Below are positions 2,070 through 19,385 of a DNA stretch of 30,120 bases, in pieces. Source of the stretch: Promethearchaeota archaeon (GTDB lineage: Archaea > Asgardarchaeota > Hermodarchaeia > Hermodarchaeales > Hermodarchaeaceae). Position 1 is the stretch's first letter. Each line of letters starts with the position of its first letter. The stretch is taken from assembly GCA_048938295.1 (NCBI GenBank), contig JBHLMI010000012.1:31303-61422 (forward strand). Direction: 5' to 3'. The notes under the pieces are model-generated. The model searched no databases. It was not told where the DNA came from and worked only from the letters and a program-made list of their open reading frames with translations. The position numbers and the translations under genes are program-made.

Positions 2070-2867
2070 TTACTTCGCAAGCATATTCTCAATCCATAGT
2101 AGAAACGCCTTGAGGGTCTCATCTGCAATTCGCTGTGAATAGATTTGTACTGTCCCGGTTGCATCCATTCGGCATACTAGTGGTCGCCCGATGTCTTCTA
2201 TGATAGGAGTTATGAAACTGATTGCGTGAATGGAATCTGCGCTTTTTTGGACATCCTTGTAGAGGTCCAATTTATCTAAATCATGGGCACGAAGATTGAC
2301 TTCGTCGAGGCTAGTTCCGTTGAATTCAACACCTCGAAAGACAGCACGAACTAATTCACCTGGTCCTCCACCTGAAGAATCTGTTACATATCGGATAATA
2401 TTACGCATCTTCGTCCGGTTAATGTCATAGGAGTTGAGTCGCCCAGGATATCCGAGAACTGCAGATGATAATAACCAAGTCGCTGCGCTAACCGATCGGC
2501 GGGGTACATCCATGATGAAGCAGAAGCCTGTTTCTGGCCTCCACAATATTTGTGAGGTCACAGAATAGGGAACTGTTCGATATCGTCTTTGACGTCCACT
2601 AATTTCGGGAATTCGAACAAGACGTTCGTAGGAAAGGCTCAATTCGATGAATTCGGATGAGGCTTTCTGGACTTGTAATGTGGCATTGGGGAGAAGTTGC
2701 CCAATCCGTCGCGCGCTCATTCGACCACGCTGCCCTCTCTGAGAGGAGGTTTCTTCTTCACCAGCTCCTATAGGGCTTGCTAAATCATCAACTGTAAAAC
2801 GGAGTTGGATCAGTTTCCGGGTGACGGGAACTATCGCTCGAGTTTCGGTAATGTGTAGTGCCTGCAC
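2070..2867 (-). CDS. Hypothetical protein (alpha/beta, no recognised motif)
   Basis: 265-aa ORF filling the gap, co-oriented with prs, GTG start. Confidence 0.7.
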   Translation of the reverse strand: MQALHITETRAIVPVTRKLIQLRFTVDDLASPIGAGEEETSSQRGQRGRMSARRIGQLLPNATLQVQKASSEFIELSLSYERLVRIPEISGRQRRYRTVPYSVTSQILWRPETGFCFIMDVPRRSVSAATWLLSSAVLGYPGRLNSYDINRTKMRNIIRYVTDSSGGGPGELVRAVFRGVEFNGTSLDEVNLRAHDLDKLDLYKDVQKSADSIHAISFITPIIEDIGRPLVCRMDATGTVQIYSQRIADETLKAFLLWIENMLAK

Positions 2868-3019
2868 CTAAATACCTCCAACCGCACAGTGTAGGGTGCA
2901 ACTTCTATTTATTTGAAACAGTACCGATTTTAGTCGCCTTCTTCATAAGCCGATTAGAATGATGGAATCATTGAAAAAGCACAGAGCTGGCTAGGGTTCT
3001 CAGACAGGGAGGATAATCA

Positions 3020-3772
3020 ATGGCTCCGAAAAAGGAAGAGAAGAAACGTATCGTCATCACCCCAGATGAAGGAGAACATCATCACGCTCATGGTCACAGT
3101 CACGTGCATTCCCACTCTACAAGTTCTGAAATCGTTGATATCACGTTAGAAGAAAACTTCATGGACCGTAACAAAGCGCTAGCCCATGAGAATCTTGAAT
3201 ATTTCAACGAGCATGGAATTCGAACTGTCAATATTCTGGGCAGTGTTGGGTCAGGAAAGACCTCATTGATTGAAGCCATTACGCAAAAACTTGCTCACCG
3301 GCGTGATGAGATTTTAGTAATCGCCGGTGATGTTACTACAACCATTGACGCAGACCGCATCGCCCAACATGGTGTGAAGACCATTCAGGTGAATACTGGC
3401 GTTGAATGCCACCTGGATGCGAAGCTCATCCGAAAAGCCCTTGGCACCGCCGACCTTGCTTTAACCAAGATCATAATTATTGAAAATGTTGGCAACCTTA
3501 TCTGTCCAGCTGATTTCCCGTTGGGGAGTCACCTACGCCTTGTTGTAGTGAGTGTCACAGAGGGACCATGGATGATTCAAAAACACCCGGTCATGTTTCA
3601 TGAAGCAGACATCTTAGTCATTAATAAAATCGATTTGGCTGAAATTATGGATGTTGATGTCGACCAATTGGAGCGAGACGCAAAGCAAATCAATCCAAAC
3701 CTAGAAGTGTTCAGAACAAGTGTTCGAAAGGGTATAGGTGTTGATGAAGTAATCCAGCACTTAGGGTTCTGA
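3020..3772 (+). CDS. hypB: Hydrogenase nickel-incorporation GTPase HypB with His-rich N-terminus
   Basis: HHHAHGHSHVHSHS, P-loop GSVGSGKT, CHLDA, ENVGNLICPADF, NKID; GGGAGG Shine-Dalgarno upstream. Confidence 0.93.
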   Translation: MAPKKEEKKRIVITPDEGEHHHAHGHSHVHSHSTSSEIVDITLEENFMDRNKALAHENLEYFNEHGIRTVNILGSVGSGKTSLIEAITQKLAHRRDEILVIAGDVTTTIDADRIAQHGVKTIQVNTGVECHLDAKLIRKALGTADLALTKIIIIENVGNLICPADFPLGSHLRLVVVSVTEGPWMIQKHPVMFHEADILVINKIDLAEIMDVDVDQLERDAKQINPNLEVFRTSVRKGIGVDEVIQHLGF

Positions 3773-16128: not shown

Positions 16129-17211
16129 ATGGGACAAATTAGAGTTGCTATCGCTGGACTCGGAAATTGCGCGTCAGCTCTTGTTCAGGGCATCCATTAT
16201 TACAAGGATGTCACAGGAAAAGAGGAGCGCGTACCAGGGCTCATGCATCCCATCTTCGGAGATTATCTGCTGCGAGATATCAAATTCGTTGCAGCATTCG
16301 AAGTGAATGCCGGAAAGCTTGGAAAAGATATCAGCGAGGCTATCTTTGTCCCCCCTAATTGTGTGATTAAGTTCACTGAAATACCTTCATTGGGAGTCAA
16401 AGTTTTGCCTGCACCTATCATGGATGGTGTTGCAGAGCATATGTTCGGGGCCTTCGATGTCTATGACCCTAAGAAAATAGAACCAGTAGATGTCGCTGAA
16501 GAACTTCGCAGATCTAAGGCAGAAATGCTGATTAATTTCCTTCCCGTCGGCAGTGCTAAGGCATCACGCTATTATGCCCAGGCAGCCTTGGACGCGGGAT
16601 GCGGATTCCTCAACTGTATCCCTGAATTCATTGTCTCTGATCGTGGCTGGCAAGAGAAATTCCACAAAGCCGGTCTCCCCATGGCTGGTGATGACATCAA
16701 AAGCCAAGTGGGAGCCACAATTCTCCATCGAGTCATTGCCCAATTGCTATCTGACCGTGGAATTGAAATTGACGAAACTTACCAACTCAACATCGGGGGC
16801 AACACTGATTTTTTGAATATGACTGCAGAACACCGCCTAACAAGTAAGCGCATTAGCAAAACTGAGGCAGTAACCAGCATTTTGGATTATCCTGTGCCCA
16901 CCCGTATCGGTCCCAGCGACTATGTTCCATTCCTTAATGATACTAAAATCTGTTACATTCATGCCCAGGGAAAAAAATGGGGCGGAATGCCCCTCCATAT
17001 CGCACTAAAACTCTCTGTACAAGACTCACCGAATAGTGCTGGGGTTGTTGCTGATGTTATCCGTGCTACCAAAATCGCTTTGGACCGAGGAATTAGCGGT
17101 CCGCTCCTTAGCATCTCAGCCTATTCATTTAAACACCCTCCAGAACAGATTGAAGATTCTATAGCAAAAAGGTATGTTGAAGAATTCATACAAGGAGAAC
17201 GCGAGCGTTAA
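16129..17211 (+). CDS. ino1: myo-inositol-1-phosphate synthase
   Basis: IAGLGNCASALVQG, NFLPVGS, NCIPEFI, GDDIKSQVGATI, YQLNIGGNTDFLNM, SKRISKT, DSPNSAGV. Confidence 0.96.
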   Translation: MGQIRVAIAGLGNCASALVQGIHYYKDVTGKEERVPGLMHPIFGDYLLRDIKFVAAFEVNAGKLGKDISEAIFVPPNCVIKFTEIPSLGVKVLPAPIMDGVAEHMFGAFDVYDPKKIEPVDVAEELRRSKAEMLINFLPVGSAKASRYYAQAALDAGCGFLNCIPEFIVSDRGWQEKFHKAGLPMAGDDIKSQVGATILHRVIAQLLSDRGIEIDETYQLNIGGNTDFLNMTAEHRLTSKRISKTEAVTSILDYPVPTRIGPSDYVPFLNDTKICYIHAQGKKWGGMPLHIALKLSVQDSPNSAGVVADVIRATKIALDRGISGPLLSISAYSFKHPPEQIEDSIAKRYVEEFIQGERER

Positions 17212-17323
17212 ACGAAGTAATCAAATTGGAATATATCTTATTCTATTACCAAAACCGTCATTCACTTTGAATGCCCTCTCCCCCGTTATATTTCCTGAAA
17301 CCTAATAATCAGTGGCGTCTCTT

Positions 17324-17477
17324 ATGGCAGAATCGCCGAAGCGATTATTTGATGAAACTGATTATTCCCATTCTAGTGCAGGTATTTCTTCTGTCTTGAA
17401 AAGAGCCTAAAAAGGATGAGAATAACATCGCTAAACGACGAGTTGAAGAGTTCATAAAGGGTACGCGAGATCGTTGA
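17324..17477 (+). pseudogene. Frameshifted small ORF or remnant whose 3' end encodes a copy of the Ino1 C-terminal peptide
   Basis: 17427-17477 reads IAKRRVEEFIKGTRDR* versus Ino1 IAKRYVEEFIQGERER* (12/16 identical, stop aligned). ATG 17324 joins it only through a +1 shift in the A4 run at 17399-17402. Confidence 0.55.
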
Positions 17478-17509
17478 ATTCAGGTTTTTTCCTGACAACA
17501 AGAGCTGTT

Positions 17510-17707
17510 TTAGTCTGATGGTGTTTTCGGCATGGTGAGGGGAGAGCCTGAAATCCACAGCTCGCGTTTCAGGAGGTCGCGGATGGCTACTCGGATTGCT
17601 TCACTCCTCGTTGGATATGTACCTCTATCTACTAATGTGTCAAGTCCTCGTACGTAGGCTTTAGGGAGTTTGACCGATACTAAATGCAAGCGTATTACCC
17701 GGGACAT
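17510..17707 (-). CDS. Ribbon-helix-helix (CopG/Arc/MetJ) regulator, CdrS-like
   Basis: LVSVKLP beta strand, YVRGLDTLVDRGTYPTRSEAIRVAIRDLLKREL; a TATA element at leaderless spacing supports ATG 17707. Confidence 0.9.
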   Translation of the reverse strand: MSRVIRLHLVSVKLPKAYVRGLDTLVDRGTYPTRSEAIRVAIRDLLKRELWISGSPLTMPKTPSD

Positions 17708-17737
17708 ACCCAGACATATACCTGGACATTATAAAAA
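17696..17737 (-). promoter_or_regulatory. Leaderless promoter of the RHH gene with three ATGTCYNGGTA-like direct repeats (putative autoregulatory operator)
   Basis: The minus strand reads GTTTTTATA ATGTCCAGGTA T ATGTCTGGGT ATGTCCCGGGTA; the TATA lies about 21-30 nt upstream of the ATG; repeats are spaced 12 and 10 nt. Confidence 0.6.
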
Positions 17738-17771
17738 CACTTCCACCCAATGCAAACCAGCTTTCTCCTAC

Positions 17772-17807
17772 TCGGAGTTTTCGGAAAAGCCTTTTAAGAA
17801 ACTCCGA
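17772..17807 (+). promoter_or_regulatory. Palindrome enclosing the putative tes BRE/TATA
   Basis: TCGGAGTTT-N18-AAACTCCGA perfect 9-bp inverted repeat, with inner AAAAG-C-CTTTT and TTTTAAG; AGGAG Shine-Dalgarno at 17851-17855. Confidence 0.5.
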
Positions 17808-17867
17808 CACGAAACAATACAAACTCACCACCAGAGAGTGGTAACCACAAAGGAGCGATTATTCACA

Positions 17868-19385
17868 ATGGAAAAAATGACACCTAAAGAACTCCCCTAC
17901 ACAACCAAATCTGTATGCCCTGAATGCTTCTGTGTGCTTGAAGCCACCGTCTATGAAGAAGACGGAAAAGTCATGATCAAGAAAAAATGTGATGAGCACG
18001 GTGAATGCGTAGACACTTACTGGTCCAGTGTATCGGAGTTCAATCGAGCTTTTCAATACGCTTACAAAGGTATTGGCCTTGATAACCCTCGAACTGAAAC
18101 CGTTTATGGATGTCCAAACGACTGTGGGCTGTGCCCAAACCACAAAACCCATACAAACCTAGCACTAATCGATGTTACCAACCGATGTAACCTCGAGTGC
18201 CCGATTTGTTTTGCCCACGCTGGGAAGGCAGGTTATGTCTATGAGCCGACGCTAGATCAAATTCGAGGAATGCTTGAGAACTTACGTGCTAACAAACCAG
18301 TCCCTGCCCCTGCGGTCCAATTTGCAGGAGGCGAACCAACGATGCGGGCAGACCTTCCTGAAATCATCAAGTTGGCAAAGGAAACTGGTTTCTCCCACGT
18401 TGAGATTGCTACAAATGGGTTAATGCTTGCGCAAAAAGGATATGCCAAGAAACTAGCCGAAGCCGGGTTAAGCACAGTGTACATGCAGTTTGATGGGGTA
18501 ACAAAGGAGCCATATCTCGCCGCTCGTGGTGTGAACCTACTTTCTCAGAAACTAAAGGCCCTTGAAAATTGCCGTGAAGAAGGCTTACACAGCATTGTTC
18601 TTGTTCCCACCCTTGTACGAGGTGTTAACGACCACCAGGTCGGCGACATCATCCGTTTCGCAGTCAAAAACCATGACATCGTCCGTTGTATCAACTTTCA
18701 ACCAGTAGCGATTACAGGACGAATTGATACCGAAAAGCGCCAAGAGATGCGAATAACAATTCCAGATTTGAACTGTCTCGCCGAAGAACAAACCGATGGC
18801 ATAATGAAACAGAGCGACTGGTATCCTGTTCCTTTTGTAATGCCCGTTTCACGAGCGCTTGGTCTTCTCTCAGGAACACCAATGGTGGAATTCTCTGAGC
18901 ACCCAGCTTGCGGGATGGCTACTTTCATTGTCATCGAAGACGACGGGAGCTGGGCTCCGATAACCAAGTACGTTGAGGTCGAAAAATTCCTCGGTACACT
19001 TGAAAAAATGGCAAAGGACTTCGAAAAAGGAAGAACCACGCGTGGCAAGATGCGTGGAGTGTTAGGGGCGATGCGATTCTTCAAGAAACGCGGGATGCTC
19101 ATGAGCCTTGCCAATAACCTTCTCCTCAAGAAAGACTATGATGCACTTGCAGAGTTCATGAAACGTATCATCATGGTGGGTTCTATGCACTTCATGGATC
19201 CCTACAACTTCGACCTTGAGCGTGTTGAACGGTGTGGAATTCATTACGCGATTCCTGATGGTCGAATTATTCCCTTCTGCTCTATGAACTCCTTCCATCG
19301 AGAAAAAGTTGAGAAGCAGTTTGCCATACCCGTAGAGGAATGGCAGGCAGCTCACCCGGGTAAGAAGATGAACGCACCTGCATAA
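17868..19385 (+). CDS. tes: Tetraether lipid synthase Tes (radical SAM, GDGT macrocycle formation)
   Basis: N-terminal CPEC...CDEH metal site, CPNDCGLCPNH, radical SAM CNLECPIC, GGEPT, LVPTL, NFQPV and C-terminal EHPACG / ERCGIHY..PDGRIIPFCSMN. ATG 17868 follows AGGAG; the ORF track start 17670 is too far upstream. Confidence 0.88.
   Translation: MEKMTPKELPYTTKSVCPECFCVLEATVYEEDGKVMIKKKCDEHGECVDTYWSSVSEFNRAFQYAYKGIGLDNPRTETVYGCPNDCGLCPNHKTHTNLALIDVTNRCNLECPICFAHAGKAGYVYEPTLDQIRGMLENLRANKPVPAPAVQFAGGEPTMRADLPEIIKLAKETGFSHVEIATNGLMLAQKGYAKKLAEAGLSTVYMQFDGVTKEPYLAARGVNLLSQKLKALENCREEGLHSIVLVPTLVRGVNDHQVGDIIRFAVKNHDIVRCINFQPVAITGRIDTEKRQEMRITIPDLNCLAEEQTDGIMKQSDWYPVPFVMPVSRALGLLSGTPMVEFSEHPACGMATFIVIEDDGSWAPITKYVEVEKFLGTLEKMAKDFEKGRTTRGKMRGVLGAMRFFKKRGMLMSLANNLLLKKDYDALAEFMKRIIMVGSMHFMDPYNFDLERVERCGIHYAIPDGRIIPFCSMNSFHREKVEKQFAIPVEEWQAAHPGKKMNAPA

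Follow-up and report, generated by a model that had tools for sequence, protein, structure and literature searches.

Introduction

In fungal mitochondria, mORFs bringing a foreign gene C-terminus have been described for atp6 of Allomyces macrogynus and for atp6, atp9, cox2 and nad3 of Glomus sp. (PMC3630166 and its reference 48). The Glomus mORFs are of LAGLIDADG type in three of the four cases, and the two C-termini of Glomus atp6 share 63.5% nucleotide and 91% amino acid identity (PMC3630166). The locus described here has the same arrangement: the gene now ends in an inserted C-terminus, an endonuclease open reading frame (ORF) follows, and the native C-terminus has been displaced to a position downstream of it. 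It likewise shows low DNA and high protein identity of the two copies (here 67% and 75%), and here too their affinities differ, the native copy going with the closest relative and the inserted one with a different lineage. The differences are considerable. Our locus lies on an Asgard chromosome, in the gene for a cytosolic lipid-headgroup enzyme, whereas mORFs are found in organelle respiratory genes. The ORF is free-standing, with a spacer behind the stop codon and a TATA box, whereas mORFs are in frame with the host gene. Moreover, its product is about 540 aa long and has a nuclease core flanked by HTH domains on either side, and hardly anything of the ORF is left in the window itself.

Free-standing homing endonuclease genes (HEGs) between genes are also known from T-even phages. 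The Seg and Mob enzymes, of GIY-YIG or HNH type, spread in mixed infections by double-strand-break repair with co-conversion of variable length ('intronless homing'), and the HEG-bearing allele is protected by differences in the target sequence. By analogy, the cassette described here would share with them its free-standing, intergenic nature and a co-conversion of variable length. To our knowledge, the phage genes are usually not accompanied by a duplicated replacement end of the neighbouring gene. For the omega element of yeast mitochondria, Goddard and Burt reportedly described a homing cycle of invasion, fixation, degeneration and loss. Our literature search revealed no description of C-terminus-swapping cassettes of this kind in Asgard or other archaeal chromosomes.

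In this study, we analyse a second, displaced copy (echo) of the end of the archaeal ino1 gene. With a probability of roughly 0.9, we regard the echo as the original ino1 3' end of this lineage, displaced by a HEG cassette that brought a replacement end and later lost about 1.5 kb.

Results

The end of ino1 occurs twice

The window, i.e. the whole stretch of DNA analysed (30,120 nt; G000:C1:31303-61422), was compared with 14 genomes of the genus. The locus comprises the following features, in window coordinates.

16129-17211, plus strand: ino1 (archaeal myo-inositol-1-phosphate synthase), intact coding sequence of 360 aa, today a hybrid gene (Pfam Inos-1-P_synth, E 2.5e-33)
17095-17211, plus strand: imported 3' tract of ino1 (co-converted), with the replacement tail at 17161-17211 (4 mismatches in 117 nt to G005)
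17212-17313, plus strand: left arm of the cassette, with spacer, TATA-like box TTATATTT and HEG start region (GTG 17312) (about 90-92% identical to G005 and G006)
17314-17318, no strand: deletion junction, with a loss of about 1.43-1.50 kb from the endonuclease ORF (alignments to G005 and G006)
17319-17410, plus strand: LAGLIDADG endonuclease gene, 3' stump with the final ~30 codons and TAA at 17408-17410 (89% nucleotide identity to the 3' end of the G005 HEG)
17398-17426, plus strand: left part of the displaced ino1 end, decayed from KHPPEQIEDS to KEPKKDENN (about 90% shared with G005 and G006)
17427-17477, plus strand: echo, displaced native ino1 3' end (nearest to the functional tail of G001)
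17478-17509, no strand: native intergenic spacer between ino1 and the RHH gene, about 32 nt (matching spacing in HEG-less relatives)
17510-17707, minus strand: convergent RHH (CopG-type) gene, right synteny anchor (Pfam RHH_1, E 4.4e-9; syntenic in relatives)
17868-19385, plus strand: radical SAM gene with HMPTM-type zinc ribbon (Radical_SAM, E 2.3e-28; Zn_ribbon_HMPTM, E 3.5e-16)

The radical SAM gene is a synteny anchor and lies outside the element. The remnant at 17398-17426 overlaps the HEG stop codon and travels with the cassette.

The present tail of ino1 at 17161-17211 encodes IAKRYVEEFIQGERER and a stop. A second copy of the last 16 ino1 codons, the echo, is displaced 266 nt downstream (17427-17477, IAKRRVEEFIKGTRDR and a stop). 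The two share 12 of 16 amino acids plus the stop and 34 of 51 nucleotides. Of the 12 identical residues, 6 are encoded by different codons, the stop is TAA in the tail and TGA in the echo, and the nucleotide differences fall on codon positions 1/2/3 as 4/2/10. An earlier note on this DNA had given the coordinates, identities, six synonymous changes and stop change of this pair, together with the positions of the TATA-like box (17286-17293), of ATG 17324 and of a run of four A (A4 run, 17399-17402), and all of these were reproduced. When the tail peptide was shuffled (n=500) and searched against the six-frame translation of the window, the best matches reached at most 8 of 17 positions, as compared to 13 of 17 observed; the resemblance of tail and echo is far beyond chance. 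No second tail copy is present within 1.5 kb of ino1 in 11 HEG-less relatives. The reading frame of the echo has no ATG, GTG or TTG start codon. The ATG at 17324 opens a 28-aa ORF as claimed, which is part of a 32-aa ORF opening at GTG 17312.

Gene order places the echo at the ancestral end of ino1

Orthologs of ino1 were found in all 14 relatives of the genus (85-91% amino acid identity). In the 11 HEG-less relatives of the genus or family, the homologue of 17510-17900, comprising the convergent RHH gene and the start of the radical SAM gene, begins about 16-47 nt past the ino1 stop (about 34 nt in G014). In the window, this block begins 32 nt past the stop of the echo and not past the present ino1 stop. 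The echo therefore stands at the ancestral ino1 3' end, and 17212-17426 is an insertion. The stretch 17442-17504 is 92% identical to the ino1 end of G001 and the 30 nt downstream of it.

G001 has an insertion of its own, about 930 nt between a point 30 nt past the ino1 stop and the RHH gene (L063, G001:C60). It was considered as a related remnant and rejected, as it contains an unrelated 254-aa ORF on the minus strand.

The complete cassette in relatives and its remains in the window

Inserts of 1.6-1.7 kb sit at exactly the same site in G005, G006 and GCA_016550425.1, between the ino1 stop and an echo of the ino1 tail. The endonuclease ORF in these three genomes is thus flanked by two host 3' ends; in the window only the ends of the ORF are found. 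The G005 insert contains an intact 544-aa ORF followed by the echo IAKQQVEEFIQGTRER and a stop. In G006 the same ORF is frameshifted into pieces of 143 aa and 388 aa. The HEG of GCA_016550425.1 (P0003), 57% identical to that of G005, lies between ino1 and the RHH gene.

The window aligns to these inserts in two separate arms. Positions 17212-17313 match the sequence directly after the ino1 stop in G005 and G006 (about 90-92%), which there continues into the 544-aa ORF, and 17314-17477 match a site about 1.7 kb further downstream on the same contigs, with 89% identity of 17319-17441 to the right end of the cassette. In the alignment to G005, window positions 17002-17313 correspond to 920-1233 and 17319-17720 to 2733-3118; in that to G006 the two arms join at 17314. 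From the split alignment to G005 it follows that about 1.5 kb, nearly the whole ORF, is missing from the window.

The stump ends in FDETDYSHSSAGISSVLKRA and a stop, as compared to FDETGYSYSSAGIFYILKRA and a stop in G005, and one extra base near 17347 shifts its frame. Judged by this alignment, the 28-aa ORF of the earlier note is the frameshifted C-terminal stump of the endonuclease gene. The TATA box is kept in G005 and G006, and in G005 it starts 28 nt before the ATG used by NCBI (P0002, 529 aa), a spacing that fits a leaderless archaeal transcript and a role as the HEG's own promoter. At 17312-17410, the HEG start codon region is fused to the last ~30 codons, which leaves an open 32-codon frame behind an intact TATA box; its first 11 codons are shifted and the frame is then restored by a 1-nt insertion. 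This open frame is probably accidental, though it might be translated.

In GCA_016550425.1 the echo is complete. It comprises 26 aa (HPPEQIEDSVAKLRVEEHIQGTRER and a stop), begins right after the FK codons and includes an undecayed HPPEQIEDS. Hence the last ~78 nt of ino1 are duplicated, and the KEPKKDENN of the window represents KHPPEQIEDS after decay, so that the loose mirroring of these two strings pointed out in the earlier note reflects real homology. In the same genome, the HEG runs into the echo in its own frame and without an A-run, and thus no conserved frameshift signal links HEG and echo.

The remnant in the window, termed ghost here (about 251-266 nt), was also considered as a MITE-like repeat; this was rejected since no other copy exists in the genome. 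An Rfam search of 17100-17600 at a permissive threshold gave no match.

Assembly support

Two Logan contigs cover the ghost with zero differences. The first, from the probable source sample (775 nt, depth 43), spans 17191-17900, the second, from another sample (490 nt, depth 10.6), spans 17219-17708, and neither has an indel at the A4 run. As far as contigs, as distinct from raw reads, can tell, the ghost stretch is not an assembly artefact. Logan contigs break within the tract common to the species (17157-17220). Loose contig ends (17314, 17204) belong to a G005-like allele with HEG in sample X2 and a G005-like allele without HEG in X1; carriers and non-carriers thus occur in samples of the same sediment study.

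The endonuclease and its family

The G005 ORF (P0001) encodes a free-standing HTH-LAGLIDADG-HTH protein of about 540 aa. Alignment of 11 family members (paralogs) over their full length revealed two motifs, AFAYxLGxxVSDA with an invariant D307 and FLQGLNDGDG with invariant D413, D415 and G416. The G005 protein carries both LAGLIDADG motifs in one chain, each with its conserved acidic residue. The AlphaFold model of this protein (mean pLDDT 87) predicts the LAGLIDADG alpha-beta-beta-alpha-beta-beta-alpha double-domain fold, and in a fold search of the PDB with this model the best 20 matches were all LAGLIDADG proteins, including PI-SceI, the Tli VMA intein, E-DreI, I-Tsp061I, I-DmoI, I-SceI and WhiA. 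I-DmoI and I-Tsp061I (target TM about 0.63-0.65) are the best compact structural matches for the core and, like the G005 protein, have two LAGLIDADG motifs per chain. They differ in being encoded in rRNA introns, in their size of about 180-200 aa and in lacking N- and C-terminal HTH domains, and their sequence identity to the G005 protein is 13-17%.

Pfam LAGLIDADG_3 (PF14528) scores 20.9 bits on the G005 protein, under the gathering score of 22.5, and matches 10 of the 11 family members at E <= 0.01 (best 9.4e-6). HTH models match the regions flanking the nuclease core at both ends. One database relative has a precomputed PF14528 match and is named 'LAGLIDADG family homing endonuclease' by NCBI. 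A sequence-profile search of the PDB with the family alignment found nothing. A profile search of 301 genomes from across a sample of the phylum detected the family in 47, nearly all belonging to two families. Its distribution is patchy, with multiple copies in the genus, many of which are truncated.

The WhiA structures among the fold matches and the HTH domains at both protein ends might suggest that the ORF is a domesticated, WhiA-like DNA-binding regulator or otherwise inactive. In that case, the cassette and its tail would have passed between co-occurring species through ordinary homologous recombination alone, and the echo would remain the displaced native tail without being a product of homing. 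We regard this as improbable. The acidic residues of both motifs are invariant in the 11 paralogs, unlike those of WhiA. Pseudogenes are many in this patchy, multi-copy family, HEGs just 57% identical occupy one and the same site, and the repeated link with duplicated gene ends is the signature of a selfish endonuclease.

Other members of the family were found in the following contexts. An intact HTH-LAGLIDADG member of 528 aa (L072, G000:C1:969-2546) lies on the same contig about 29 kb upstream of the window, and tblastx around it detected no tail echo. Paralogous HEGs, 35-40% identical, are likewise flanked by echoes of the 3' end of a neighbouring gene: a Trm112-like gene (L083 in G012:C44, 1319-1396 and 3117-3194; 26 aa, 61% identity, E 3e-9) and a ThrRS-editing-domain gene (L069 and L070; G010:C12, G012:C51), whose echo is ESGRS[IL]D and the stop only. 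Both of these host genes lie on the opposite strand, facing the 3' end of the HEG. In genomes of family f6, HEG homologues lie inside open frames of 600-1500 aa (e.g. G090:C34:11536-13764, G223:C28:10492-12678, G100:C8:11258-12841), in some cases preceded closely and in frame by a partial copy of the N-terminal part. These long frames could be in-frame host-gene fusions as in fungal mORFs, or tandem copies.

Foreign and native tail

Concerning the first 942 nt of ino1, the tree places G000 and G001 as sisters (82% identical, support 97/96), and G002, G005 and G006 as a separate tight clade (92-94% identical); all genomes are metagenome bins and the host phylogeny is here based on ino1 itself. 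G000 is 75% identical to G005 and G006 over this part. Over the next 120 nt (17071-17190), G000, G001, G005 and G006 are 88-95% alike, and the HEG-less G002 is just 72% identical to its sisters G005 and G006. The site in G002 is empty and without the converted tract. The present tail together with about 117 nt of the ino1 3' end is 97-100% identical to G005 and G006. The tail alone matches that of G005 at 50 of 51 positions, and its last 21 nt match G005 and G006 at 21 of 21 and G001 at 12 of 21. Given 97-100% identity at the 3' end as compared to 75% elsewhere in ino1, the present tail and at least 117 nt of the gene's 3' end travelled with the cassette. The left ends of the converted tracts differ (about 17034 in G006, 17079 in G005 and 17095 in G000), as expected of gene-conversion tracts.

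Each echo has its counterpart elsewhere. According to the tail identity matrix, the G000 echo matches the functional tail of G001 at 44 of 51 positions, with 21 of 21 in the right-hand part. The echo of G005 matches the tail of G002 at 47 of 51, and that of GCA_016550425.1 the tail of G014 at 43 of 51. Since the window's echo is closest to the G001 tail and keeps the ancestral distance of about 32 nt to the RHH gene, we infer that the echo is the native ino1 end and the present tail foreign. That the two tails resemble each other as protein, but not as DNA, is explained by their origin as orthologous alleles from species with about 75% ino1 identity. Each tail evolved under purifying selection in its own lineage and not as a duplicate evolving in place. 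The coding selection proposed in the earlier note thus did shape both tails, in separate lineages and not in situ. The displaced copies of two genomes carry changes that never occur in functional tails: the G006 echo has Pro at an Ala position that is invariant in 30 functional tails sampled, and the GCA_016550425.1 echo has His at a Phe/Tyr position that is strictly aromatic in functional tails.

In the HEG-less G011 (L016, G011:C23), the 3' 120 nt of ino1 are 85-86% identical to the travelling tract, the rest of the gene 73-76%. G011 may be near the lineage that donated the replacement tail, or may once have been a carrier itself.

Discussion

The proposed history of the locus comprises three steps. 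A cassette would have entered the ino1 3' end by double-strand-break repair (homing), coming from another species of the genus; it comprised a replacement for that end, about 60-120 nt of spacer including a TATA box of its own, and an ORF for an HTH-LAGLIDADG-HTH protein of about 540 aa. The incoming tail would thereby have become the end of functional ino1, and the native tail would have been pushed to the far side of the cassette, beside the RHH gene. A simple internal deletion of about 1.5 kb in the endonuclease ORF of G000 would then have left the 266-nt ghost, i.e. the two cassette ends and the displaced tail. The earlier note had considered the segment as the 3' scar of a displaced ino1 allele; this was essentially right and incomplete, as the LAGLIDADG cassette that brought the replacement tail had been missed.

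The spread of the cassette was presumably driven by the endonuclease, which would cleave the HEG-less ino1 end, probably near the FK/HPP codons where the duplication begins. The presumed insertion-point sequence TTTAAACACCCTCCAGAACAG is still present in the replacement tail of G000, G005 and G006. In its present form, the ghost allele is probably inert and no longer cut.

Within one genus, the site is found with an intact HEG (G005), with a frameshifted HEG (G006), as a ghost with a deletion of about 1.5 kb (G000), and HEG-free with a converted tract (G001). These states agree with the homing cycle of Goddard and Burt. The difference is that loss here leaves a duplicated gene end or a hybrid tail, not a clean intron-less site. 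The hybrid is seen in G001, whose tail is chimeric: its left 15 nt match the travelling tail at 14 of 15 positions, its right 21 nt match the G000 echo at 21 of 21, and the joint lies within the shared GTTGAAGANTTCATA. On the simplest reading, the two tail copies of G001 would have recombined with each other, with loss of the cassette.

The other suggestion of the earlier note was that the segment encodes a microprotein, the echo being translated from the 28- or 32-aa ORF via a +1 shift, or being fused to it once a 1-nt sequencing error in the A4 run is corrected. The product would carry the terminal helix of Ino1, mimic it and regulate the enzyme, and would thus control inositol lipid headgroup synthesis. 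A TATA-like box with an open 32-codon frame upstream, and a G000 echo without any obviously disabling change, are what such a gene would show. We nevertheless consider a microprotein very unlikely. The upstream ORF is a frameshifted HEG stump and the TATA box, conserved in G005 and G006, is the HEG promoter. The echo frame has no start codon of its own, and the echo is missing in 11 of 14 relatives of the genus. The A4 run is free of indels in the contigs of both samples, which speaks against a sequencing error, and as a fusion point it is missing from the homologous junction of GCA_016550425.1, where the HEG frame enters the echo differently. Finally, the G006 and GCA_016550425.1 echoes are altered at the invariant and the strictly aromatic position.

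About as remote is the possibility that an integrative element of the integrase type left the insert behind, with an ino1 3' end in its attP and the two copies as attL and attR. Direct repeats do bracket an insert at a gene 3' end, and GTTGAAGANTTCATA is a core common to both. In the full-length inserts of G005, G006 and GCA_016550425.1, however, the LAGLIDADG gene is the sole ORF and no integrase is present; the ghost is single-copy in the genome, and the ends of the conversion tracts vary with no fixed crossover core. A tandem duplication of the ino1 3' end in situ, with later divergence and no mobile element, would explain two co-oriented copies 266 nt apart and can practically be dismissed, given that near-identical partners of the two copies are found in two different species (50/51 in G005; right half 21/21 in G001) and that the DNA between them is homologous to both ends of the 1.7-kb HEG cassette.

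For ino1, the outcome is sobering: the locus contains no concealed control of inositol-lipid headgroup synthesis, and the gene itself is an intact hybrid, with its last ~39 codons derived from another species. The feature is a degraded homing-endonuclease cassette with a swapped gene end, of a kind known from fungal mitochondria and in a host domain that is new for it. The locus nonetheless presents the stages of the homing cycle in Asgard archaea with unusual clarity, as a natural series, and provides direct sequence evidence for recent interspecies DNA transfer and recombination in these uncultured organisms. As a warning, conserved marker genes in these genomes can have xenologous 3' ends. 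A concrete candidate enzyme-target pair is given by the G005 protein and the HEG-less end of ino1. We lean slightly towards the view that the ino1 ghost is one footprint among several of an HEG family that is currently active and homes into the 3' ends of conserved housekeeping genes (ino1, the Trm112-like gene and the ThrRS-editing-domain gene), carrying replacement ends with it. If true, housekeeping genes would be made mosaic by it, and DNA exchange would be documented between co-occurring species about 75% identical in ino1.
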